The notes under the pieces: generated by a model
Seen by the model: only the letters and a program-made list of their open reading frames with translations
Told to the model about the DNA's origin: nothing
Databases searched by the model: none
Assembly (NCBI GenBank): GCA_963711925.1
Contig: CAVQFY010000007.1
Span: 349,601-413,600, forward strand
Direction: 5' to 3'
DNA length: 64,000 nt
DNA from: an uncultured Alphaproteobacteria bacterium
GTDB taxonomy: Bacteria; Pseudomonadota; Alphaproteobacteria; Rhizobiales; Rhizobiaceae
Position numbers and translations under genes: made by a program
Part shown: in pieces, positions 3,834 through 17,014 of the stretch
How positions within the stretch are numbered: position 1 is the first letter of the stretch
How the letters are laid out: each line of letters begins with the position of its first letter

Positions 3834-3942
3834 AAAAAACAACACCCACCGCGGGAGGAGCGGTGGGTGTTACTTGTAAAGACCGGCTGGGAGGAGACCG
3901 ATCTCTAGACCATCCGTGACGTGGGAGGAACGTCCCGGAGGT
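3834..3942 (-). ncRNA. Cuckoo / alpha-r14 (NfeR1/CcsR-like) small RNA with three UCCUCCC-loop hairpins
   Basis: Minus strand gives three consecutive hairpins with loops UUCCUCCCA, CUCCUCCCA and UCCUCCC; last hairpin followed by U-tract; lies just 3' of a DUF1127 gene. Confidence 0.8.
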
Positions 3943-3955
3943 TAATCGAATTCTA

Positions 3956-5176: not shown

Positions 5177-5202
5177 AGTGCATGAATTATAATTCATGCA
5201 CT
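5177..5202. promoter_or_regulatory. Perfect 26-bp palindrome, probable operator of the sugar operon
   Basis: AGTGCATGAATTA|TAATTCATGCACT, 8 bp upstream of TTGACA (5211-5216). Confidence 0.65.
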
Positions 5203-5345
5203 GAATTATATTGACAAAGATTTTCTTTTAGGCTTGATTGCTCCGACAGCATTTCGAGGAGGATTGCTGGACTTCACAACGAATAGTGGCGGCTTGCGAG
5301 GCACCACGAAACCAATGGGAGGGGCTTCGGCCTCGAGGAGGACAC

Positions 5346-6374
5346 TTGCGCACTTTTTTAAGCACAACTGCCATGGCAGTCCTGGTCATGGCGTATTCCG
5401 CAGCCCCTGCCAAAGCTGCCGAAGAATCGCCGTTTCGCTGCGAGCCAGGCGAAAAATACGTCATGAACGTCATGGTTTCTGGCGTTGAATACTGGTTCCC
5501 TGTCTATGAAATGTTCAAGCAGGCGGGAAAGCAGCTCGGTTGCGAAACTGCCTATACCGGAACACCGGAATATGATGTCAACAAGCAGATCGCCAGTTTC
5601 GATCAGGCTCTGGCGCAGAAACCAGCCGGCATTCTCGTCCATCCAATGAACTCAGATCCGTTTATCGAGCCGATCAACCGGGCAATCGATCAAGGTACGG
5701 CAGTCGTGACGTTCGCGGCTGATTCTCCGCTCTCGAAGCGAATTTCCTTTATTACCTCCGACAATATCCGCGAGGGCACCTATGCTGCCGATGCCATCGC
5801 CACGAAGCTCGGAGGCAAGGGCGAATACGCCGTCCTCGAGAATCCCGGGCAGGATAACCACGACAAGCGCGTCACGGCTTTTATCGACCGTATGAAGGCT
5901 AAGTGGCCCGACATGAAGCTCGTTGGCAGAGCAGCCTCAAACCAGGATCCGACGAAGGCCTATCAGGGCTTGATGAGTATCGTCCAGGCCAATCCTAATC
6001 TCGCGGCCGTCTTCATGCCGGAGGCGAACTCGGCCATTGGAGCTGCCCAGGCCAACAAGGAAAATGGCGGGAAAATCCTGGTCATGTGTGCGGACGTCAA
6101 TGCGAACATCCTTGACATGATCAAAGCCGGTGAAGTCTTCGGCTCGATCAACCCCAATCAGGGCATGCAGGGGTATATGGGTTTCATGCTGCTTTGGCTG
6201 GCCAAACATCCGGAACTGATCGATCCCATGAACGACGCCAAGCGTGCAGGATTCAACCCGATGAGCATTCCCTTCGTGGACAACGGACTTTCCATTGTCA
6301 CCGCCGAGAATGCGGACGATTTCTTCTGGGACAAATACCTCAAGCGTCGTGGCACCAAAGGCATTGAGGAATAA
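5346..6374 (+). CDS. Sugar ABC transporter substrate-binding protein
   Basis: TTG start after GAGGAGGA, signal peptide ending AAPAKA, periplasmic binding fold motifs ([18 protein letters not shown]). Confidence 0.9.
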
Positions 6375-6386
6375 GCCATTGCAGCC

Positions 6387-6415
6387 GGCTATCCGGACGG
6401 CAAGTCCGGGTAGCC
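6387..6415 (+). other. Intercistronic hairpin after binding-protein gene
   Basis: ggctatccggac-ggcaa-gtccgggtagcc 12-bp stem; typical mRNA-stabilising position. Confidence 0.5.
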
Positions 6416-6445
6416 ACCTTGCGAAGCCAGTTGGAAGAGTGCGTC

Positions 6446-7987
6446 ATGCGAAATCCGGTTCTGAATATCCGCAACGTCACAAAACATTTCGGTGCAGTGA
6501 AGGCGCTGACGAACGTGAGCTTCTCCCTTAGCCGTGGTGAGATTCATGCGCTTTGCGGTGAGAACGGCGCCGGCAAGTCAACGCTGATGAACATCATCGC
6601 AGGTGTTCTGCAACCGGATGAGGGAGAGATTGTATTGGAAGGCAAGACGGTGAAGATCGGATCGCCTGCCGCTGCACAATCTCTAGGCCTGGGATTAGTC
6701 CACCAGGAAATCGCGCTTTGCCCGGACGCCAGCGTTGCGGAAAACATCTTCATGGCAACCACCAGCCGGCAGCGCTCGCTGCTGATGAACTACCGCAAGC
6801 TGGAACGCGAGGCACAAGACGTAATGAACCGGCTCGCGCCAATCGACGTTCGCCGCAAGGTGGGTGATCTGCCAATCTCCAGCCAACAGCTCGTGGAGAT
6901 CGCCAAGGCCCTGACGCTCGACTGCCGTGTCCTCATTTTCGATGAGCCGACCGCCGCACTGACTGAAGCGGAAACGCGCATGCTTTTTGAGATCATCCGC
7001 GGTTTGAAGACCAACGGGATATCGATCATTTATATCAGCCACCGCATGGCCGAGATATTCGACCTTTGCGACCGGGTGACTGTTCTGCGTGACGGCCGCC
7101 ATGTGTCGACAGAGCCCGTTGCCGATCTTAAACCTGACGACGTTGTACGCCTTATGGTCGGGCGCGAGATTACGCAACTCTATCCACCCAAGCAACCGGC
7201 CGGGGAGCGATCGCATGAGGTGGTGCTTTCGGTTCGCGCCCTTGGCGACGGTCACCGTTTTGATTGTGTAAACATTGAGCTTATGAAGGGCGAAATCCTT
7301 GGCATCGGTGGTCTCATTGGCTCCGGCCGCACGGAAATCGCGGAAGGGATCTGCGGCTTGCGAGCCATTACGAGCGGCGAAATCCTGCTCCATGGCAAGC
7401 CGCAGGCGATAAGAAACTATGCGGACGCGGTGAACGCAGGTCTCGTTTATCTGTCGGAAGACCGCAAGGGCTCCGGCGTATTCCTGGACCTTTCGATCGC
7501 CCAGAATATCTCGGTTCTCAACCTAGACGCGCTTACCGGGCACCTTGGGTTGATCGACGCCGGGGCAGAAGCAAAGCTGGCCAGCGACTTCGCCAGGAAA
7601 CTGAATATTCGCATGGGCAGTGTCGATGCACCGGTGTCCTCGCTCAGCGGCGGTAACCAGCAGAAGGTTGCGATTGCCAAACAGCTCGCCGTCCAGCCCA
7701 AGGTGATAGTGATGGACGAACCGACGCGTGGCATAGACGTTGGGGCGAAGTCCGAAATCCACTCGCTGCTGCGCGAACTCGCCAGCTCCGGAATTGGCAT
7801 CATCGTCATTTCTTCCGAACTCCCCGAACTGCTCGGGCTGTGTGACCGGGTGATTGTCATCCGCGAAGGCACGGTGGCTGGTGAACTGGATGCGGAAGCG
7901 ATGAGCGAAGAAGCGGTTATCCGGCTCGCGTCAGGCGTCAATGCGCAAACTGCACAAAACCGGCTGGCATCAGAACATGCCGCCTGA
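6446..7987 (+). CDS. Sugar ABC transporter ATP-binding protein (CUT2, two domains)
   Basis: [32 protein letters not shown]. Confidence 0.95.
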
Positions 7988-8009
7988 GAAAAGTATGGGA
8001 GACGAGAAA

Positions 8010-8999
8010 ATGCTGGCTGAGACGATGGGGACAAAGGCCGTGCGGGCCCCGTCCTGGAAAAGACTGGGCTCGATGCGGGAGGCAGGGCTGATCGCCATCA
8101 TTCTCGCACTTTGCATAGCCATGAGCTTTGCATCGCCGCATTTTCTGACACTCGGAAACTTCCGCGCGATGCTGATGAGCTTTTCCGTGGAAGGCATCGT
8201 TGTCGTCGGGATGACGATCCTGCTTATTGTCGGCGGCATCGACCTTGCCGTGGGCTCCGTCGTCTGTTTCGCGATGGTCCTGTCGGGCTCGCTGTTCCTC
8301 GCGGGGCTCGATCCATGGAGCGCTTCGCTCATCGGCATTCTCGCAAGCGCGCTGATTGGCGCCGTCATGGGCTTTTTCGTCACCGTAGTCGGGCTCAATC
8401 ACTTTATCACGTCGCTCGCCGGTATGGTCATCGTGCGCGGCCTGTGCCTTATCATCACCAAGGGAACGCCGCTCTCGCTCTTTACCCTGCCTACCGCGTT
8501 CAAGGCAGTCGGGCAGGGCAGTTTCCACGGTCTCCCCTATGTCATCATCATCTTCGTCGCCGTTGTCGTGCTGTTCGACTTCCTGCTCAGGCGTGCAACG
8601 GCGCTGCGCAAGGTTTTCTATACGGGCAGTAACGAGAAAGCCGCGCTCTATTCCGGCATCAGGACAAACCATGTGAAATTCTGGGTGACCGTGCTCTGCT
8701 CGACGCTCGCGGGTTTTGCCGGCGTCATCTACATGTCGCGTTTTGGCGCTGCTACGCCGACGTTCGGTGTCGGGATGGAGCTCAACATTATCGCCGCTGC
8801 GGTCATTGGTGGCGCATCGCTCAATGGCGGGTCGGGGACGATACTTGGTGCCATTCTTGGGATAGCATTGCTGTCGGTGGTGACCAGTTCTCTGGTCCTG
8901 CTCAATGTATCGGTCTACTGGCAGGACATGATAAAGGGGTGCATTCTGCTTGGTGCCGTCTCAATCGATCATTTTCTGCACAAGCGGAAGGCTTCCTGA
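8010..8999 (+). CDS. Sugar ABC transporter permease (RbsC-like)
   Basis: GGIDLAVGS, GxNEKAALYSGI, ELNIIAAAVIGGASLNGG; start uncertain (7977 or 8010). Confidence 0.93.
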   Translation: MLAETMGTKAVRAPSWKRLGSMREAGLIAIILALCIAMSFASPHFLTLGNFRAMLMSFSVEGIVVVGMTILLIVGGIDLAVGSVVCFAMVLSGSLFLAGLDPWSASLIGILASALIGAVMGFFVTVVGLNHFITSLAGMVIVRGLCLIITKGTPLSLFTLPTAFKAVGQGSFHGLPYVIIIFVAVVVLFDFLLRRATALRKVFYTGSNEKAALYSGIRTNHVKFWVTVLCSTLAGFAGVIYMSRFGAATPTFGVGMELNIIAAAVIGGASLNGGSGTILGAILGIALLSVVTSSLVLLNVSVYWQDMIKGCILLGAVSIDHFLHKRKAS

Positions 9000-9000
9000 C

Positions 9001-10011
9001 ATGACGATCGTCAGACTAAACACAAAACCGTCCTCGGCACCCCGCGAGGAAATCGTTATTGCGCGGCAAATGCATCAGGCCTTGGTGCTGCATTTCCTGG
9101 AGGGTCTCACGCAGGCCCAGATCGCCGACCAGCTCGGAGTTTCGCAACCGACTGTGAACCGCCTGATCAAGCGTGGCCGGCAGCTTGGTCTTGTGGAGAT
9201 CAAGATCAAATCCCCGGTCGAGCCCTTGATTGATCTGGAGGAGCGGTTGCTGGCGCTCGGCGGGATCAACCGGGCTGTTGTCGTGCCAACGGTTTCCGAC
9301 AATCCGCAGACCGCGCTTCAGGCCGTGGGCGAGGCTGCGGCGCGCCTGCTTCTCGATGAGATCGCCGATGGTGACACGATCTGCATCACCGGCGGCAAGG
9401 GTGTCAGTGCCGTGGTTGCGGGCCTTCGCGCTCCACGTTCTTTCAACGTCGAAGTTGTTCCAGCCACGGGATGCGTCCAGGGCAAGCACTACACCGATGT
9501 GAACCATGTTTCGACATCCATGGCGGACAAGCTCGGCGGTCGTGCCTATCAGATTCACGCGCCGCTCTTTGCTGACAGCGCTGCAGAACGTGCGATGCTG
9601 ATCAACATGCGCTCGGTAGCCGATGTATTCAAACGGGCACGGGAGGCGAAGGTGGCACTTGTCGGCATCGGGTCGATCCTGACCGACGATTCAAGCTATT
9701 ACGATCTGCATCCATCCTCCAGTACCGACAGGCAATCGATAGAGCAGTCAGGCGCAAGTTGCGAACTCCTGGCGCATCTGCTCGACGACCGGGGCCAGGT
9801 TTGCGGCTACAGCCTCAATGATTCCCTTGTGTCGTTGACGTTGCGGGAATTCGCCTCGATCCCAAGCAAGATCGGCGTCGCGAGCGGACCCAACAAGGCA
9901 CGGCCAATCCTCAGCATCATGCGTGGCAACCACCTGGATACGCTGGTCACAGATGAAGCGACTGGACAGCGGATTCTGGATATTGCGGCGGCCGAAGGAG
10001 CCTTGGCATGA
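9001..10011 (+). CDS. SorC/DeoR-type sugar-binding transcriptional regulator (LsrR/EryD-like)
   Basis: HTH LTQAQIADQLGVSQPTVNRLIKR plus sugar-binding domain (VALVGIGS, DTLVTDE). Confidence 0.9.
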   Translation: MTIVRLNTKPSSAPREEIVIARQMHQALVLHFLEGLTQAQIADQLGVSQPTVNRLIKRGRQLGLVEIKIKSPVEPLIDLEERLLALGGINRAVVVPTVSDNPQTALQAVGEAAARLLLDEIADGDTICITGGKGVSAVVAGLRAPRSFNVEVVPATGCVQGKHYTDVNHVSTSMADKLGGRAYQIHAPLFADSAAERAMLINMRSVADVFKRAREAKVALVGIGSILTDDSSYYDLHPSSSTDRQSIEQSGASCELLAHLLDDRGQVCGYSLNDSLVSLTLREFASIPSKIGVASGPNKARPILSIMRGNHLDTLVTDEATGQRILDIAAAEGALA

Positions 10012-11003
10012 GTGGTGATCAATTGGTGCGTTCGATAGGCAGGTCAGGCGTGCAAGCCTCTGCGGTCGGGCTTGGGACGTGGGCCATCGGTGGCTGGATG
10101 TGGGGCGGGACGGACGAAAAGCAGTCAATCGCGGCAATTCACGCATCCCTCGACGCGGGGGTCACTCTGATCGATACTGCACCCGCTTACGGGCTGGGAC
10201 GGTCTGAGGAGATCGTGGGTAAAGCCCTTCAAGGGCGGCGGGACAAAGCGGTCATTGCCACAAAATGCGGTCTCGTCTGGCACACGAAAAAAGGCAGGCA
10301 CTTCTTTGACCAGGACGAAAAGCCCGTCCACCGCTACCTTGGACGCGATGCTATTTTCCACGAGGTCGAAGCAAGCCTGACCCGGTTGGGCACGGATTAC
10401 ATCGATCTCTACATCACCCATTGGCAGGACCCTACGACCCCGATCGAGGAAACCGTTCGGGCGCTGGAGGATCTGCGCAGTTCAGGCAAGATCCGGGCAA
10501 TTGGAGCAAGCAATCTCAGCCCGGCCGAACTGGACGCCTACATCGCAACCGGCTCGCTTGATGCTATCCAGGAAAAGTTCAGCATGATCGACCGGGAGAT
10601 CGGGAAGGACCTCCTGCCTATGGCCCGGCAGAACGACGTTTCGACCTTGAGCTATTCGTCCCTGGCGCTGGGGCTGCTCTCGGGAACGATCGATCCGGAC
10701 CGCACATTTTCCGGCGATGACCAGCGCAAAGACAATCCGCGTTTCTCGGTCAACAACAGGCTGAAGGCCCGCGAGTTCGCTGAAGCAATTCAGCCGGTAG
10801 CCAGCAGGCATGATGCCAGCATTGCACAGACGGTCATCGCCTGGACGCTGGCGCAGGAAGGCGTGACGTTTGCGTTGTGCGGTGCGCGCAATCCGGAGCA
10901 GGCGCTGGAGAACGCAAAAGCCGGGACGATTCGGCTCGGCGGGGAAGACCTTTCGGCCATCGCCGCGGCCATCGCAGTGAAACTTGCAGATATGGACAGG
11001 TAA
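10008..11003 (+). CDS. Aldo/keto reductase
   Basis: GLGTWAIGG, DTAPAYG, IATKCG, DLYITHW; ATGA overlap with regulator. Confidence 0.92.
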   Translation: MSGDQLVRSIGRSGVQASAVGLGTWAIGGWMWGGTDEKQSIAAIHASLDAGVTLIDTAPAYGLGRSEEIVGKALQGRRDKAVIATKCGLVWHTKKGRHFFDQDEKPVHRYLGRDAIFHEVEASLTRLGTDYIDLYITHWQDPTTPIEETVRALEDLRSSGKIRAIGASNLSPAELDAYIATGSLDAIQEKFSMIDREIGKDLLPMARQNDVSTLSYSSLALGLLSGTIDPDRTFSGDDQRKDNPRFSVNNRLKAREFAEAIQPVASRHDASIAQTVIAWTLAQEGVTFALCGARNPEQALENAKAGTIRLGGEDLSAIAAAIAVKLADMDR

Positions 11004-11014
11004 CGGGCTCCATC

Positions 11015-12820
11015 ATGAATCGTGAAGAGATATTCGACGGGCTTCGCCGGAGTCCGAAGGTGGACGTGTGTGTCATGGGCGGCGGCATCAACGGTATCAG
11101 TGTATTCCGTGAGCTTGCCCTTCAGGGTCTCAACGTACTGCTCGTGGAGAAGAGCGATTATTGTTCCGGTGCCAGTTCAGCCTTGTCTCGGATGGTGCAT
11201 GGCGGCCTGCGTTATCTTGAAAACGGCGAGTTCAATCTGGTGAGTGAATCGCTTGTCGAGCGCGATCGACTATTAAGAAACGCGCCGCATCTTATCGGGC
11301 CCCTGCCGACGATGGTTCCTGTTTTCGATATCTTCTCCGGTCTTGCAAATGGCGTAGTTCGCTTCCTTGGCCTCGGCCGCAAACCCAGCCGCCGTGGCGC
11401 CATCGCCATCAAGGCAGGGCTGAGCATCTATGATTTTCTGACGCGCAAGCGTGCCCTGATGCCTCGGCATCGATTTCGCGGACGGCGGGGAACACTTGCC
11501 AAATGGCCCAAACTCAATCCGGCGATAAAGAGTTCGGCAACCTACTACGATGCATGGGTCAGGCAGCCGGAACGTATTGGAATCGAATTGCTGCAGGACG
11601 GGCTGTCAGCGGGACCGGGCGCACGTGCCCTCAACTATGCTGAGCTCCGAGGCAGCGGGACCGGGGGTTTTATTGTGCAGGACCTTGTTGGCGGCATGAC
11701 GACGGCTATCGAACCGGCACTCATCATCAATGCGACGGGCGGCTGGATCGATATCGCCAATGCCCGCCTGTTCTCGCCGGAAACTCGGCCGGCGCCGCTG
11801 ATGGGCGGAACCAAGGGCTCGCACCTGATTATCGACAATGCCGAACTCTCCAAGGCTCTCGATGGCCATATGATCTACTACGAGAATGAGGATGGCCGTG
11901 TCTGCATTCTGTTTCCCTATCTCGGCAAGGTTCTGGTTGGTTCCACCGATATTCGGATCGATGACCCGGCAACTGTTGTTTGCACCCCGGATGAACGGGA
12001 CTATATCCTGCAATCGCTCGCCTTCGTGTTGCCTGATATTCAAATCCGGCCGGAGGAAATCGTCTATCAGTTCTCCGGTGTCAGGCCGCTTCCCGCCAGC
12101 AAGGACAAGTTCACCGGGCATATCCCACGCGATCATTTTTGCACCTTCATCGAATCTGATGGCGTTCCGGCGGTGCTATGCATGATTGGCGGCAAATGGA
12201 CGACGTTTCGCTCGTTCGGAGAACTCGCTGCGGACATGGCATTAGGTCGCCTGCAGAGAACCCGCTATCTGACGACGGCGGACCGTCCCATTGGCGGCGG
12301 GCGCGCTTTCCCGGCGAATACCGGAGACTGGATAGCGCGCACGTCTTCCGCAACGGGCCTTGCGCCAGCGCGCGTAAGCGGGCTTTTCGAACGATATGGA
12401 ACAGCCGCCGCCCCAATTGCCGGCTTCATAGCCAGTGGAGCGGACGAACCCGCGCCGGTCGCCGGTTACTCCACCCGCGAGATGCTGTTCCTCATACGCC
12501 ATGAATGCGTCGAACATCTCGATGATCTCCTGCTGAGACGAACAACGCTCGCTATCAGCGGACAATTGTCGCTCGATATGACGAATGTGGCCCTCGAGCT
12601 CATCGCAGATGAAAAGCACTGGTCACCGGCATTCAAGGCTGCCGAACGGTCTCGGTTCCTCGATCTTCTCGCCGTCCGCCATGGCGTCGGCCTTGAAGCC
12701 CTTACAGCACGCAATGAACAAGGAGCACGATATGCGAAACAACCGCAAGGTCCGGATGAACCGACTGTTCGGCAACGGGCGCTGCCTCGACGTGGCGATC
12801 GATCACGGCGTGTGCAATGA
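11015..12820 (+). CDS. FAD-dependent glycerol-3-phosphate dehydrogenase-like (GlpD/EryB-like) polyol-phosphate dehydrogenase
   Basis: GGGING FAD motif, SRMVHGGLRYLE, GGKWTTFR; 3' end overlaps next gene by 89 bp. Confidence 0.85.
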   Translation: MNREEIFDGLRRSPKVDVCVMGGGINGISVFRELALQGLNVLLVEKSDYCSGASSALSRMVHGGLRYLENGEFNLVSESLVERDRLLRNAPHLIGPLPTMVPVFDIFSGLANGVVRFLGLGRKPSRRGAIAIKAGLSIYDFLTRKRALMPRHRFRGRRGTLAKWPKLNPAIKSSATYYDAWVRQPERIGIELLQDGLSAGPGARALNYAELRGSGTGGFIVQDLVGGMTTAIEPALIINATGGWIDIANARLFSPETRPAPLMGGTKGSHLIIDNAELSKALDGHMIYYENEDGRVCILFPYLGKVLVGSTDIRIDDPATVVCTPDERDYILQSLAFVLPDIQIRPEEIVYQFSGVRPLPASKDKFTGHIPRDHFCTFIESDGVPAVLCMIGGKWTTFRSFGELAADMALGRLQRTRYLTTADRPIGGGRAFPANTGDWIARTSSATGLAPARVSGLFERYGTAAAPIAGFIASGADEPAPVAGYSTREMLFLIRHECVEHLDDLLLRRTTLAISGQLSLDMTNVALELIADEKHWSPAFKAAERSRFLDLLAVRHGVGLEALTARNEQGARYAKQPQGPDEPTVRQRALPRRGDRSRRVQ

Positions 12821-13574
12821 ACCATCTTTCCTGGATGGTCTTGAGGATATGGAAGGTGTGGTCGGAACGCTGGTTGCCGCGGCTCCGGATGCGATCCAGA
12901 TGAACTATGGCCAGGCCGATCTTCTCCAGAACGTGGCAGGCAAGGCAAAGCCGGCTCTCGTCATGCGCATCGACATGGGTAACCCCTATAACCCCGTCCG
13001 CCACCGCAACATGTGGGCTGTTCTGCAAAATCAGGCCGAGCCACTGGTCGGTGCTATCGAACTCGACGCTGCCTGCGTGGTGGTGAACCTGTTTATGCTG
13101 CCGGATGAGCCTGACCTGTTCCGTCAGTGCATCGAGAACATCTCGCGTGTCCGTGCCGATTGCGAAAAATATGGCATGCCGTTGATGATTGAACCCCTCG
13201 TCATGCAGCCGGTTACCGAACGCGGAGGCTATATGGTAGATGGCGACGCGGACAAGATCGTCACGCTAACCCGGCTTGCCCGCGAGATGGGCGCCGATAT
13301 CGTCAAGGCGGATCCCACGACCAACGCCGAGGACTTTCACCAAGTTGTCGAGGCAGCGCGTTGCCCGGTACTGGTGCGGGGCGGCGGAAAGGAAGATTTG
13401 CGCGCCGTCTTCGATAAATCGGCAGCCTTGATGCGGCAGGGCGCGATGGGAATGGTTTACGGTCGCAACATATACCAGCACTCCAACCCGCGTGCCGTGG
13501 TGCGTGGACTCATGGCAATCATCCATGACGATACCAGTGGCGAGGACGCCTACGCGCGCTATCAGCAAGGCTGA
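12732..13574 (+). CDS. Class I (DhnA/LsrF-like) aldolase
   Basis: AIDHG, PLMIEP, GADIVKAD (Schiff-base Lys), VLVRGGG, YGRNIYQH; RBS AAGGAG. Confidence 0.88.
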   Translation: MRNNRKVRMNRLFGNGRCLDVAIDHGVCNEPSFLDGLEDMEGVVGTLVAAAPDAIQMNYGQADLLQNVAGKAKPALVMRIDMGNPYNPVRHRNMWAVLQNQAEPLVGAIELDAACVVVNLFMLPDEPDLFRQCIENISRVRADCEKYGMPLMIEPLVMQPVTERGGYMVDGDADKIVTLTRLAREMGADIVKADPTTNAEDFHQVVEAARCPVLVRGGGKEDLRAVFDKSAALMRQGAMGMVYGRNIYQHSNPRAVVRGLMAIIHDDTSGEDAYARYQQG

Positions 13575-13605
13575 GAATGAATAAGGACCTGAGGAGGGGT
13601 TCGGA

Positions 13606-15135
13606 ATGGGAAAATATCTTCTGGGGCTGGATGCCGGCAATACAATCATCAAGGCGGTGATCTTCGACCGGCAGGGCAACGAGATTGCCTCCGTTGCCGA
13701 GGAGGGACATAGCAGCATGCCGTGTCCAGGACATGTCGAGCGTGGGCTTGGTGAACTCTGGACAAATGCAAAGCTGGTAATTCGGACATGTATCGAGCAG
13801 GCGGGCATCGAGCCGAGGGAAATCGCAGCCATCGGGTGCGCGGGCCATGGCAACGGGCTCTATGCGCTTGACCGGCAGGGGGAGCCGCTGCTCGCCATCC
13901 AGTCGCTCGATACAAGGGCAGCCGGTCTTGTCGAGGAATGGCAGGCCGAAGGCGTCGGCGATCGTACATATCCCATCGGCCTGCAACGCCCCTGGCCCTC
14001 CCAGACACCAACATTGCTCGCCTGGATCAAACGCCATCGGCCGGAAACATTCGGTAGGATCGGTACGGTCTTCCTCTGCAAGGACTTTATCGTCAATCGG
14101 CTCACCGGCCAGCGCGTCAGCGAAGTTTCCGACATGGCGGGTTGCGGGCTGCTGAACGTCACTGAGCGCCGCTATGATCGTGACCTGATGGCCGCCTTCG
14201 GGCTCGGTGATTGTATGGATATGCTGCCACGACTGATCGAAAGTGCTGATATAGCCGGAAGAGTGACGGAAGCGGCGGCGGCGGAAACAGGTCTCGCCGT
14301 GGGTACACCGGTCATAGGCGGGTTCTTCGACGTCGTCGCTTCGGCTATCGGCTCGGGCGTCACACGCACGGGGGCGGCGTCGATCATTGCCGGGACCTGG
14401 AGCATCAATCAGGTGATCATCGATCAGCCCCGGCTCAACGGTCCTGTCTTCATGTCATCGACCTTTGATCGCGATCGTTACATGGCGATCGAGTCCAGCG
14501 CTACATCTGCCGCCAATCTCGAATGGTTCGTGCGCGAATTCTTTCCCGGCAAGCAGCAGGATGGACGCTCGCCGTTCGACGTGTGCTGCGAGCTTGCGTC
14601 GTCGGTGGAGCCAGCGGCCAACGATCCGATCTATCATCCGTTTCTCTATGGAGCGCAGCAGGACGGCAATGCGCGGGCCGCATTCTATGGAATTGCCGGC
14701 TGGCACACCAAGGGCCATTTGATCCGTGCTCTGCTGGAAGGCGTTGCCTTCGGTCATCGCCAGCATGTCGAAACCCTGCGGGCCGCAGGCGCCGGGTTCG
14801 ACGAAGCGGTGCTGTCAGGAGGTGGTTCGCGCAGCCTGCTCTGGCCGCAGATTTTCGCGGATGTGCTGGGAGTGCCCGTCACGGTCGCCCGCTCGAGCCA
14901 GACCGGCGCCCTTGGCGCGGCGATCGCCGCAGGAACCGCCGTCGGCATGTTTGCCGATTTCGAGGCTGGCGCCAAGGCTATGGTTTCAACTGACCGCCAC
15001 TACAGGCCGGACGCAGCGCGCTCGGCCCATTATGACTACCGCTACCGGCTCTACCTGGATATCGCCGATGCAATGGCGCCGATCTGGCGGCGCATGGCAG
15101 GAAGCGGAGCATCCGCAACGGAGGTGGCAGCGTGA
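13606..15135 (+). CDS. FGGY-family carbohydrate kinase (L-xylulokinase/EryA-like)
   Basis: [35 protein letters not shown]. Confidence 0.92.
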
Positions 15136-16757
15136 ACCCGCATGCCCATGAAGCAGCACTCGACGAGGGCGTCTACGACTTCATTATCATAGGAGCGGGA
15201 TCGGCAGGCTGCGTCCTTGCCAACCGGCTGTCGGCGAACCCGAAAAATCGCGTTCTCCTGCTCGAGGCTGGAGGCAGCGATCGATATTACTGGATTCATG
15301 TGCCGATCGGCTATCTCTTCTGCATGGGTAACCCTCGCACCGACTGGATGATGAAGACGGCGGTGGAGCCGGGCCTCAACGGCCGCTCCTTGCCCTATCC
15401 CCGCGGCAAGGTCCTCGGCGGATGTTCTTCGATCAACGGAATGATCTACATGCGTGGGCAAGCCGCCGATTACGACAATTGGCGGCAAGCAGGCAATACC
15501 GGCTGGGGCTGGGATGATGTCCTGCCGTATTTTCTGAAATCCGAAGACAATTATCGCGGGCGCACTTCCATGCATGGTGCGGGCGGGGAGTGGCGCGTGG
15601 AGCGGCAGCGACTTTCGTGGCCCATCCTCGATGCTTTTCGGGATGCCGCGGAAGAACTAGGCATTCCCAAGACCGACGATTTTAATGCGGGTGACAATGA
15701 GGGCTCGGGCTATTTCGAGGTGAATCAACGCGGCGGGTTCCGCTGGAATACGACCAAGGCGTTTCTGCGCCCGGCTCTCAAGCGGCGCAATCTTCGCGTT
15801 GTCACCGGAGCCGAGGTTGAACGCCTAGAGTTCGATGGCAAGCGCGCGGTACGTGTCCGCTATGGCCTTCGGGGCAAAGCCCGCGTTGCCGCTGCCGCGG
15901 GAGAAATTATCCTTTCGGCAGGAGCAATCAACTCGCCCAAAATCCTCGAACTTTCGGGGATTGGCGACCCCGCAATCCTCTCTCGCGCAGAAATCGAGCC
16001 ACTTCACCAACTTCGCGGCGTCGGTAGCAACCTTCAGGACCACCTACAAATTCGCACCGTGTTCCGCGTCGAAGGTGCGAAGACGCTGAACCAGCTCTAC
16101 CACAATCTTATTTCGCGCGCCGGGATGGGATTGGAGTATCTTTTCCGCCAATCCGGACCACTTTCGATGGCACCGAGCCAGCTCGGCATTTTTGCGAAAA
16201 GCGATCCGGCATTGATGACACCCGATCTTGAATATCACGTCCAGCCGCTCAGCACCGATCGCCTTGGCGAGCCCTTGCACCACTACCCGGCCGTCACTGT
16301 TTCGGTCTGCAATCTCCGTCCGGAAAGCCGGGGGACCGTGCATATTTCCGGGCCGGAGGCGAGTGTTGCGCCGGACATCCGGCCGAATTACCTCTCGGCG
16401 GTCGGCGACAGACTGCTTGCCGCCAGGTCCATCCGTCACGCCCGCAATCTCATGGCGGCAAAGGCCGTCATGAAGTACCGGCCGGAAGAGATGCTTCCTG
16501 GCCGCAGATATCAGAGCGATGAGGAACTGATCCAGCGTGCAGGCGACATCGCAACAACGATCTTTCATCCGGTCGGAACCTGCAGAATGGGCAGCGACGA
16601 TCTAGCTGTGGTCGATAATAGCCTTAAGGTGCGCGGGCTGGAAAAACTACGTGTAGTGGATGCTTCAATAATGCCAGCCATAGTCTCTGGGAATACAAAC
16701 TCCCCCGTCATCATGATCGCGGAAAAAGCTGCCGATCTCATTCTTCAGGGTAACTGA
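15132..16757 (+). CDS. GMC-family FAD oxidoreductase (choline dehydrogenase-like)
   Basis: [44 protein letters not shown]; GTGA overlap with kinase. Confidence 0.9.
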
Positions 16758-17014
16758 CAACATTACCTAGTCGCAATAAAAGACTTCGGCTGGTGGACGG
16801 ACACGGTGGGTTCTCCAATATCAAGCGCGAGTGCGAGTTCGATCTTCCGCTCTCGAAATGGCCGATCCGCGCCGACAACGTGAAACTCAAGCGCGACAGC
16901 GGCCTCTTCTCGGCTGAAGATTTTTAGCACTTCATAATTTGTCGCCCAAGCGGTTCATTGCGCCGGGCCATTCACGCAACACGGCATCGGCCGTTTTTGC
17001 AACGACGCGAGTTC

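Follow-up and report, generated by a model that had tools for sequence, protein, structure and literature searches.

A conserved nine-gene operon of rhizobia for sugar or sugar-alcohol uptake and breakdown, with a predicted kinase, flavin dehydrogenase and class I aldolase route

In the L-fucose, L-rhamnose and D-arabinose routes of Escherichia coli, a 2-ketose-1-phosphate is cleaved to dihydroxyacetone phosphate (DHAP) and glycolaldehyde, lactaldehyde or glyceraldehyde, and an aldehyde oxidoreductase acts subsequently. Two other described systems come close, in their gene families, to the locus presented here. In the erythritol (Ery) system of Brucella and Rhizobium, whose SorC regulator is EryD, as is predicted for our locus, an FGGY kinase is followed by a GlpD-family flavin adenine dinucleotide (FAD) dehydrogenase acting on the phosphorylated polyol. 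The Lsr system for uptake and processing of autoinducer-2 (LsrACDB, LsrK, LsrR, LsrF and LsrG) shares with it a CUT2 ABC transporter, an FGGY kinase, a SorC repressor and a DhnA-type Schiff-base enzyme, combined in one self-regulated cluster. The locus belongs to an uncultured bacterium of the Rhizobiaceae (assembly GCA_963711925.1, contig CAVQFY010000007.1, positions 349,601 to 413,600); this whole stretch of 64,000 nucleotides is referred to as the window. The bacterium is a Phyllobacterium, with Phyllobacterium zundukense, P. chamaecytisi and P. trifolii giving the best matches in DNA and protein comparisons. Positions 5180-16757 of its + strand were confirmed to be a single, nine-gene, self-regulated operon for the uptake and breakdown of a sugar or sugar alcohol. 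The operon occurs in hundreds of root-associated bacteria, and its substrate is probably cleaved by a route absent from characterised pathways.

Nine genes, all on the + strand, fill positions 5346-16757, and the listing of open reading frames (ORFs) together with Pfam and NCBIfam profile searches placed each of them in the expected family. Start codons were refined by reading the sequence itself and by comparison with the RefSeq annotation of orthologous loci. The genes are as follows.

5346-6374, + strand: substrate-binding protein of the CUT2 family, 342 amino acids, TTG start, signal peptide ending AKA/AE; Pfam Peripla_BP_4, E 5e-53
6446-7987, + strand: ABC ATPase with two fused nucleotide-binding domains; Pfam ABC_tran, found twice
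8010-8999, + strand: ABC permease; Pfam BPD_transp_2, E 2e-32
9001-10011, + strand: SorC/DeoR-type regulator with a sugar-phosphate-binding domain; Pfam Sugar-bind, E 2e-56, and a helix-turn-helix
10008-11003, + strand: AKR11-like aldo/keto reductase (AKR); Pfam Aldo_ket_red, E 4e-67
11015-12820, + strand: long and divergent FAD dehydrogenase of the GlpD family, 601 amino acids; DAO PF01266, E 7e-41, and DAO_C PF16901, E 1e-16
12732-13574, + strand: class I aldolase of the DhnA/FbaB-LsrF-ADH-synthase superfamily, 280 amino acids; Pfam DeoC/LacD (PF01791), E 5e-58
13606-15135, + strand: FGGY carbohydrate kinase, 509 amino acids; FGGY_N PF00370, E 3e-57, and FGGY_C PF02782, E 2e-29
15132-16757, + strand: BetA-like GMC flavoprotein oxidoreductase without signal peptide; Pfam GMC_oxred_N/C

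From the permease onwards the genes are tightly packed. The permease and SorC genes are 1 nt apart, the SorC and AKR genes overlap in ATGA, and 11 nt lie between the AKR and GlpD-like genes; the GlpD-like and aldolase genes overlap by 89 nt, a gap of 31 nt separates aldolase and kinase, and the kinase and GMC genes overlap in GTGA. The overlap of 89 nt, seen in Phyllobacterium, measures 28 nt in Rhizobium johnstonii, a difference explained by the variable C-terminal tail of the dehydrogenase. Overall, the arrangement of the operon genes is far beyond chance. No isomerase or epimerase is encoded among the nine genes, and no ORF or coding room is left for one; none was found either in any related locus examined (11 syntenic loci and the best 80 loci, introduced below). 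A preliminary description of the window had listed the same nine families, co-oriented and mostly abutting or overlapping, and had remarked on the lack of an isomerase or epimerase, and both observations hold.

To compare gene content, we used a one-genome-per-species scan in which 547 stretches encode aldolase relatives, and counts refer to the best 80 of these 547. All nine genes are present in the same order in 60 of the 80 loci, which come from Rhizobium, Ensifer/Sinorhizobium, Shinella, Pararhizobium, Phyllobacterium, Brucella (Ochrobactrum) and Agrobacterium. Another 17 loci contain every gene except GMC, and fragments of the GMC gene are left in three of them. Kinase, GlpD-like and aldolase genes are adjacent in 78/80 of these closest loci. 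Eleven syntenic loci that represent other genera and families within the order, with proteins 44-78% identical to those of the window, all have the three genes side by side. The order SorC-AKR-GlpD-like-aldolase-kinase-GMC is held in ten of the 11; in locus L023 the SorC gene is relocated to the cluster end. A twelfth contig fetched together with these contained the aldolase alone. No protein of the cluster is better conserved than the aldolase, whose identity is 71-77% in the syntenic loci belonging to other families. It is at least 67% identical in 23 of 401 sampled genomes of the order, and orthologues of this class turned up nowhere outside the order in a phylum-wide sample.

Genes of the operon differ in how readily they are lost. 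Among loci covering the corresponding part of the cluster, the AKR gene is kept in 79/79, and the GMC gene is absent in 15 of 78 and decayed in three more. In one genome (G102), the locus consists of transporter, SorC, GlpD-like, aldolase and kinase genes only; an AKR orthologue was found nowhere in that genome, and its sole GMC candidate, 58% identical, is located outside the locus. Transporter, SorC regulator, kinase, GlpD-like dehydrogenase and aldolase are invariant and therefore make up the operon core, while gene-loss patterns define the AKR as near-core and the GMC enzyme as accessory. The notorious promiscuity of the AKR and GMC families, combined with the frequent loss of the GMC gene, would suit a mosaic cluster, in which a transporter and a regulator stand beside general enzymes of aldehyde and alcohol detoxification and are kept with them by co-transfer, with no pathway in common. 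Such a mosaic is very improbable in view of the gene order, the translational coupling and the one conserved operator/promoter that are held across families at the protein identities given above.

Three of the 11 syntenic loci have a different CUT2 transporter with two permeases. In variant-transporter loci, an extra MDR dehydrogenase of the TIGR02817 family was observed between kinase and GMC genes (L014 12363-13376 and L021 12299-13348), and the substrate-binding protein of the variant transporter in L014 has no solved relative and no NCBIfam match.

We infer the chemical steps of the pathway, their order and the class of substrate from the sequence data presented in this work. Evenly balanced between being right and wrong, in our estimate, is the reading that a SorC-repressed catabolic operon converts an alditol, or an aldose or ketose first reduced to one, to an alditol phosphate, further to a ketose-1-phosphate, and finally to DHAP and an aldehyde. 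The substrate would be imported by the CUT2 ABC system and, if it bears a carbonyl, turned into an alditol by the AKR11-type reductase. The FGGY kinase would phosphorylate a terminal CH2OH, and the GlpD-like flavoenzyme would oxidise the secondary alcohol next to the phosphate to give a 2-ketose-1-phosphate, its electrons passing probably to the quinone pool. This oxidation would be similar to that of glycerol-3-phosphate by GlpD and of erythritol-4-phosphate by EryB. The class I aldolase could then form a Schiff base with the DHAP-like end and cleave between C3 and C4, yielding DHAP and an aldehyde, which may be glycolaldehyde, glyceraldehyde or a deoxy analogue. The GMC enzyme would be accessory, most likely oxidising an aldehyde or alcohol by-product, or else broadening the substrate range, and a phosphorylated intermediate probably frees SorC from a TGAA-N6-TTCA operator.

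The proposed pathway accounts for the adjacency of kinase, dehydrogenase and aldolase genes, for their persistence in G102, for the retained phosphate-binding residues of the dehydrogenase, and for the absence of isomerases. Phosphorylation by the kinase, GlpD-like oxidation beside the phosphate and class I aldolase cleavage had been put forward in the preliminary description, and this succession is supported by retention of the core, G102 included, and by the GlpD residues presented below. Handling of the released aldehyde by the AKR or GMC enzyme, proposed there as well, is not established: the AKR is nearly always kept and could just as well open the pathway, by turning an aldose into an alditol, as close it, and 18 of 78 loci have a decayed GMC gene or none.

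The GlpD-like protein belongs to a sub-family separate from EryB and is about 100 amino acids longer than GlpD and EryB. On the two glycerol-3-phosphate (G3P) dehydrogenase models it reaches 247 bits (cut-off 360) and 212 bits (cut-off 352), below the equivalog level; on NF009906, the genuine EryB encoded on plasmid pRL12 of R. johnstonii scores 871 bits compared to 212 bits for the window protein. Its alignment to the E. coli GlpD structure 2qcu shows identical R54, Y55, H233, R317, R332 and K354, with T270 replaced by Ser. We take these seven GlpD residues to be the contacts with the phosphate and the C2 hydroxyl. Their preservation in a protein that scores below the cut-offs fits a phosphorylated polyol larger than glycerol. 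The window genome has just one other GlpD homologue, 31% identical, and therefore no EryB.

The same residues can be read in favour of a more conventional scheme. In it, the FGGY kinase would, like FucK and RhaB, phosphorylate C1 of a ketose, and the aldolase would release DHAP and glyceraldehyde; the AKR would reduce glyceraldehyde to glycerol, a housekeeping glycerol kinase would follow, the GlpD-like enzyme would be a second G3P dehydrogenase, and the GMC enzyme would make the ketose from a polyol. Each enzyme would thus perform a reaction known in its family, G3P-contacting residues are kept (with Ser for T270), and a GMC gene that can be missing suits an entry step that is not always needed. 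The AKR would also be suitable: its catalytic tetrad (D56, Y61, K86 and H138, read in the translation) is intact, its nearest structure is Bacillus subtilis YhdN/GSP69 (1pz1, E 1e-76), and it reaches 288 bits on the YdjG model (cut-off 550). YhdN and E. coli YdjG are reductases of small aldehydes and alpha-dicarbonyls. Nevertheless, the operon has no glycerol kinase, the genome already has its separate GlpD homologue, and the GlpD-like protein scores far under G3P-dehydrogenase cut-offs that even EryB passes. In addition, the GlpD-like gene of G102 still stands between those for SorC and the aldolase in a genome with no AKR orthologue, and this scheme would leave its dehydrogenase without a substrate. 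Such a branch through glycerol is in our opinion unlikely.

In the aldolase, the Schiff-base lysine lies in the motif ADIVKAD and aligns with the lysines of MJ0400, LsrF and the fructose-bisphosphate (FBP) aldolase of Thermoproteus tenax; the DHG motif is present as AIDHG. The position of the catalytic tyrosine of archaeal class IA FBP aldolases (Tyr146 in T. tenax) aligns with Leu, in a loop whose alignment is uncertain. Glu-Pro-Leu replaces the archaeal Glu-Ser-Tyr in the window aldolase, its syntenic orthologues and most of the relatives aligned, and in the window aldolase and its orthologues it is followed by an insert of six residues. E. coli FbaB, in contrast to this clade, keeps a Tyr nearby. 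Genes for aldolases with 43-54% identity adjoin those for PfkB kinases, for mannitol-type, MDR and GFO dehydrogenases, and for D-lyxose isomerase, and this placement in sugar and polyol loci indicates that the aldolase clade acts on ketose phosphates.

Aldolases 43-51% identical to that of the window were located in other uncharacterised sugar loci (L029 1366-13980, L025 715-10015 and L032 9972-13600). One locus of this type combines a SorC regulator, a CUT1 ABC transporter, MDR and mannitol-type dehydrogenases, a GFO oxidoreductase and two PfkB kinases, and in others a D-lyxose isomerase, a HAD phosphatase and an amine-oxidase-like flavoprotein were observed.

The kinase gives 264 bits with the XylB model and 227 bits with the LsrK model, and no equivalog cut-off is reached. 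Its database label, “L-xylulokinase”, reflects similarity only, as do the labels “class I fructose-bisphosphate aldolase” and “glycerol-3-phosphate dehydrogenase/oxidase” assigned to other genes of the cluster. EryA, a proven polyol kinase, gives the same sub-threshold XylB-like NCBIfam profile, so that a xylulokinase-like appearance is no argument against a polyol substrate. The SorC protein scores 144 bits with the DeoR(Bsu) model and 127 bits with the LsrR model, in both cases well under the cut-off.

Similarity of several proteins to Lsr components brings in another explanation, and in a computational note these genes were labelled a “putative Lsr system in Rhizobiales” (Quan and Bentley 2012, PMC3420918). 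An Lsr-like route could degrade an alpha-dicarbonyl or a 1-deoxy-ketose, such as autoinducer-2 (AI-2/DPD) or 1-deoxy-D-xylulose. The kinase would act at C5. In place of LsrG, reduction of the keto group at C3 by the AKR and oxidation of the hydroxyl at C4 by the GlpD-like enzyme would lead to 3-hydroxy-2,4-pentanedione-5-phosphate, which an LsrF-like enzyme would convert with coenzyme A to DHAP and acetyl-CoA. Besides the published label, the best solved relative of the kinase is LsrK, the regulator and the aldolase match LsrR and LsrF models, and the aldolase, like LsrF, lacks the class IA tyrosine. AKR11 enzymes reduce alpha-dicarbonyls such as methylglyoxal, which also counts in favour, and by chemical reasoning 1-deoxy-xylulose-5-phosphate oxidised at C4 would be the exact substrate of LsrF. 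Some variant loci have, as in Lsr, a transporter comprised of binding protein, ATPase and two permeases.

Opposed to this, all four Lsr equivalog cut-offs are missed widely (bits/cut-off: LsrB 56/384, LsrK 227/528, LsrR 127/486 and LsrF 104/297), and the window aldolase and kinase are only 29% identical to E. coli LsrF and LsrK in BLASTP. The operon has no LsrG, and the genome has no credible one: across the whole genome, E. coli LsrG finds at best a match of 25 bits (E 9e-5), on another contig. The aldolase is far closer, at 43-54%, to ordinary sugar-locus aldolases, and S. meliloti already has a canonical Lsr/Ait system. An Lsr system proper was rejected on account of the four missed cut-offs and the lack of LsrG, and a modified Lsr-like route for deoxy or dicarbonyl compounds seems rather improbable.

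With respect to uptake, the nearest solved structures of the substrate-binding protein are pyranose binders, namely the arabinose-binding protein 6sw4 (E 4e-46) and CbpA (7x0g). Arabinose- and glucose-binding proteins are thus its closest relatives, and matches to polyol- and AI-2-binding proteins are much weaker. This is compatible with an aldose that enters the proposed pathway through the AKR. Best NCBIfam models for the ABC ATPase are ATPases of the xylose/ribose type, none reaching its cut-off. A D-apiose system was considered and rejected: the binding protein scores only 56 bits against the 5ibq/4ry0 protein, which we take to be a D-apiose binder, and the operon encodes neither a transketolase nor a RuBisCO-like enzyme. 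The GMC enzyme is cytoplasmic. It reaches 553 bits on the choline dehydrogenase (BetA) model, whose cut-off is 605, and its nearest structures are oxidisers of primary alcohols (the chloramphenicol oxidase CmO, choline dehydrogenase and alcohol oxidases). Direct reading located an N-terminal GxGxxG FAD motif and, at the C-terminus, the His/Asn pair with the motif SGNTN.

Orthologous nine-gene operons are present in R. johnstonii 3841, on pRL12 (RL_RS36690-RL_RS36730), and in Sinorhizobium meliloti, on pSymB, with 73-88% protein identity. The two best-studied model rhizobia, S. meliloti 1021 and R. johnstonii 3841, thus both have the cluster, and existing strains, deletion libraries and reporter tools make it accessible to genetics. 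A plasmid of P. zundukense has the same nine genes in the same order, and near-identical sequences occur in many soil and plant metagenomes. In S. meliloti 1021 the operon corresponds to SMb20504-SMb20496, a numbering inferred from three anchors: SMb20504 (the sugar-binding protein), SMb20505 (tfxG, the counterpart of the divergently oriented phosphotransferase gene) and SMb20495 (encoding a large TPR protein, downstream). About 2 kb downstream of the S. meliloti copy there is a DUF1127 gene. In S. meliloti strain ml56 (L002 9001-10885) the dehydrogenase matches in three pieces and is therefore probably disrupted; it is intact in strain 1021.

Published phenotypes bear on the substrate. The S. 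meliloti deletion dB163 removes about 200 kb of pSymB (451,557-651,863; diCenzo et al. 2016, PMC4961836), and the intact dehydrogenase orthologue of strain 1021, at pSymB 519,478-521,175, lies inside this segment. In Phenotype MicroArrays, dB163 still grows on adonitol, D-arabitol, L-arabitol, i-erythritol, sorbitol and mannitol, as well as on D-arabinose, D-xylose, D-ribose, L-arabinose, L-fucose, L-rhamnose and D-tagatose; xylitol is not used by the wild type (PMC4961836). Growth was lost on D-psicose (from 9 to 0), on dulcitol (5 to 0, lost in dB181 too), and on D-glucosamine and acetic acid (5 to 0 for both, each lost in two other deletions too), and weak growth was lost on L-lyxose, D-fucose and D-melezitose (PMC4961836). 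The authors credited the psicose defect, as a prediction only, to the neighbouring SupABCD (SMb20484-20487) together with smb20488 (PMC4961836). It follows that the operon is dispensable for the common polyols in S. meliloti, and that its substrate is rarer or off those plates, is redundantly handled, or is among the few compounds lost, in which case D-psicose, dulcitol, L-lyxose or D-fucose would be the candidates. The earlier suggestion of a C5-C6 polyol is thereby narrowed, with adonitol, the arabitols, erythritol, sorbitol and mannitol still supporting growth of dB163 and xylitol unused by the wild type. In the literature we found no experimental work on these genes, and their sole mention is the computational note of 2012 (PMC3420918); a pathway that may be uncharacterised, as had been supposed, agrees with this. 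Parts of the iGD1575 model supplement available to us do not include the inferred SMb20496-SMb20504.

Three points weigh against the proposed alditol phosphate pathway. Obvious pentitols and hexitols are either not used by the operon route or are handled redundantly. A plain polyol would need three enzymes only, leaving the near-universal AKR unexplained unless the substrate carries a carbonyl. Finally, with Leu in the position of Tyr146, the mechanism of the aldolase may differ.

Regulatory features of the operon are located upstream of the TTG start, and one tentative feature downstream of the last gene, as listed below.

5180-5199, no strand assigned: perfect 20-bp palindrome GCATGAATTATAATTCATGC with the core TGAA-N6-TTCA at 5183-5196, candidate SorC operator
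5202-5216, + strand: TGAATTATATTGACA, almost invariant, in which a second half-site runs into a -35-like TTGACA (5211-5216)
5225-5345, + strand: structured 5' leader of about 120 nt with three hairpins, conserved across genera
16900-16925, + strand: tentative, weak terminator-like hairpin with T-run, about 145 nt past the GMC stop codon, from a pattern scan only

The start at 5177 assigned to the operon in the preliminary description coincides with the palindrome. We inspected 79 upstream regions (the window and 78 orthologous loci), and in 66 of them a TGAA-N6-TTCA site is positioned 161-166 nt (mostly 162-164) 5' of the TTG start. This start codon is kept in most of the 78 related loci, with GTG or another codon in a few. 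Variants of the site are still symmetric (TGAATTATAATTCA, TGAAATATATTTCA and TGAATTATTATTCA), as expected for an operator that binds a dimer, and TGAA-N6-TTCA is therefore presented as a candidate operator of the SorC repressor. The adjacent TGAATTATATTGACA is kept in 14 of 15 aligned upstream regions of different genera, being identical in 13 and having one substitution in L075, and the sequence further 5' is not alignable. A -10-like T-rich hexamer follows about 17-18 nt 3' of the -35-like TTGACA, and the two would constitute the promoter. Terminator-like sites are not more numerous in the scan than in shuffled sequences.

In the leader, the first hairpin (5247-5269) exposes UUUCGAGGAGGAU in its loop and is followed by the middle hairpin and by the UUCG-loop hairpin GGGGCUUCGGCCUC, after which the true Shine-Dalgarno sequence GAGGAGGA stands at about 5335-5342. 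RNAalifold on 16 loci gave 20 pairs, four of them with compensatory changes, and an invariant loop motif TTCGAGGAGGA. The invariant UUCGAGGAGGA in the loop of hairpin 1 is a copy of the real Shine-Dalgarno region GAGGAGGA. A third G-rich motif, GGGAGGGG, is the 5' arm of the UUCG-loop hairpin shortly before the start. A search against Rfam gave no family match for the leader, which might offer ribosomes a standby or decoy site or be the target of a small RNA (sRNA). An alpha-r14 (“cuckoo”) sRNA is encoded about 1.4 kb upstream of the operon, at 3837-3947 on the - strand (Rfam RF02344, 64 bits, above the gathering score). It forms three hairpins with anti-Shine-Dalgarno UCCUCCC in the loops, and three complementary G-rich motifs are present in the leader. 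With RNAduplex, the energy for this sRNA and the leader (-68.7 kcal/mol) did not improve on that for shuffled leaders (-62.2 +/- 5.9 kcal/mol) and gives no sign of specific pairing.

Several consequences would follow if the proposed chemistry is true. The substrates of GlpD-type flavoenzymes, glycerol-3-phosphate and erythritol-4-phosphate, would be joined by a second class, a function would be assigned to a large and so far unassigned clade of DhnA-type aldolases, and a rhizosphere carbon source missed by current metabolic models, such as iGD1575, would be identified.

Compared with known systems, the operon resembles Ery loci, at the family level only, also in its SorC-type regulator, adjacent CUT2 ABC importer and setting on a rhizobial chromid or plasmid. 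The difference is in orthology: identity to EryA and EryB of R. johnstonii pRL12 is 29% for the window kinase and 32% for the window dehydrogenase, and that replicon has both an eryABCD-tpiB-rpiB locus and a separate orthologue of the window kinase, 77% identical. An erythritol locus was thus rejected. Entry enzymes had been called Ery-like in the preliminary description, and this is correct for the families but not for orthologues, as illustrated also by the dehydrogenase scores of 212-247 bits against 871 for EryB. Moreover, the EryC TIM-barrel protein and the TpiB-like EryH and RpiB-like EryI isomerases have no place in the window operon. With direct cleavage of the keto-phosphate by the class I aldolase, carbon would enter at DHAP and an aldehyde and not at erythrose-4-phosphate.

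Altogether pRL12 carries three kinase/dehydrogenase pairs, namely the window orthologues, eryA/eryB and a third pair (40% and 43% identity). The third pair (L039 1965-13034, which is R. johnstonii pRL12 196964-208033) is located directly beside the classical ery locus. Its neighbours encode a DeoR regulator, a class II ketose-bisphosphate (FBP)-type aldolase, a TIM-barrel protein similar to D-psicose-3-epimerase and an LsrB/RhaS-like ABC system with two permeases. Judged by gene content, this module looks like a second uncharacterised unit of kinase, flavin dehydrogenase and aldolase, with an aldolase of the other class, and would repeat the logic of the operon described here.

Lsr systems differ from the operon in having no counterpart of its AKR, GlpD-like and GMC enzymes. 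The end chemistry predicted for the operon is that of the FucK/FucA and RhaB/RhaD pairs and of the engineered xylulose-1-phosphate and ribulose-1-phosphate pathways. In the Fuc and Rha routes, however, an isomerase and a 1-kinase supply the ketose-1-phosphate, which in the window operon would come from flavoenzyme oxidation of an alditol phosphate, and the aldolase is of class I (Schiff base), unlike the Fuc and Rha aldolases, which we take to be metal-dependent enzymes of class II. A bolder and rather doubtful extension is that the operon represents a third general, as yet undescribed sugar route into glycolysis. An aldose would be reduced to an alditol, phosphorylated at the far end and re-oxidised beside the phosphate by a GlpD-type flavoenzyme linked to the respiratory chain, and a class I aldolase devoid of the tyrosine would release DHAP and a C2 or C3 aldehyde. 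If true, such a route would stand beside the isomerase/kinase and the oxidative (aldonate) routes, with the carbonyl moved to the other end of the chain, and would form a natural parallel to the xylulose-1-phosphate and ribulose-1-phosphate pathways that have been engineered.

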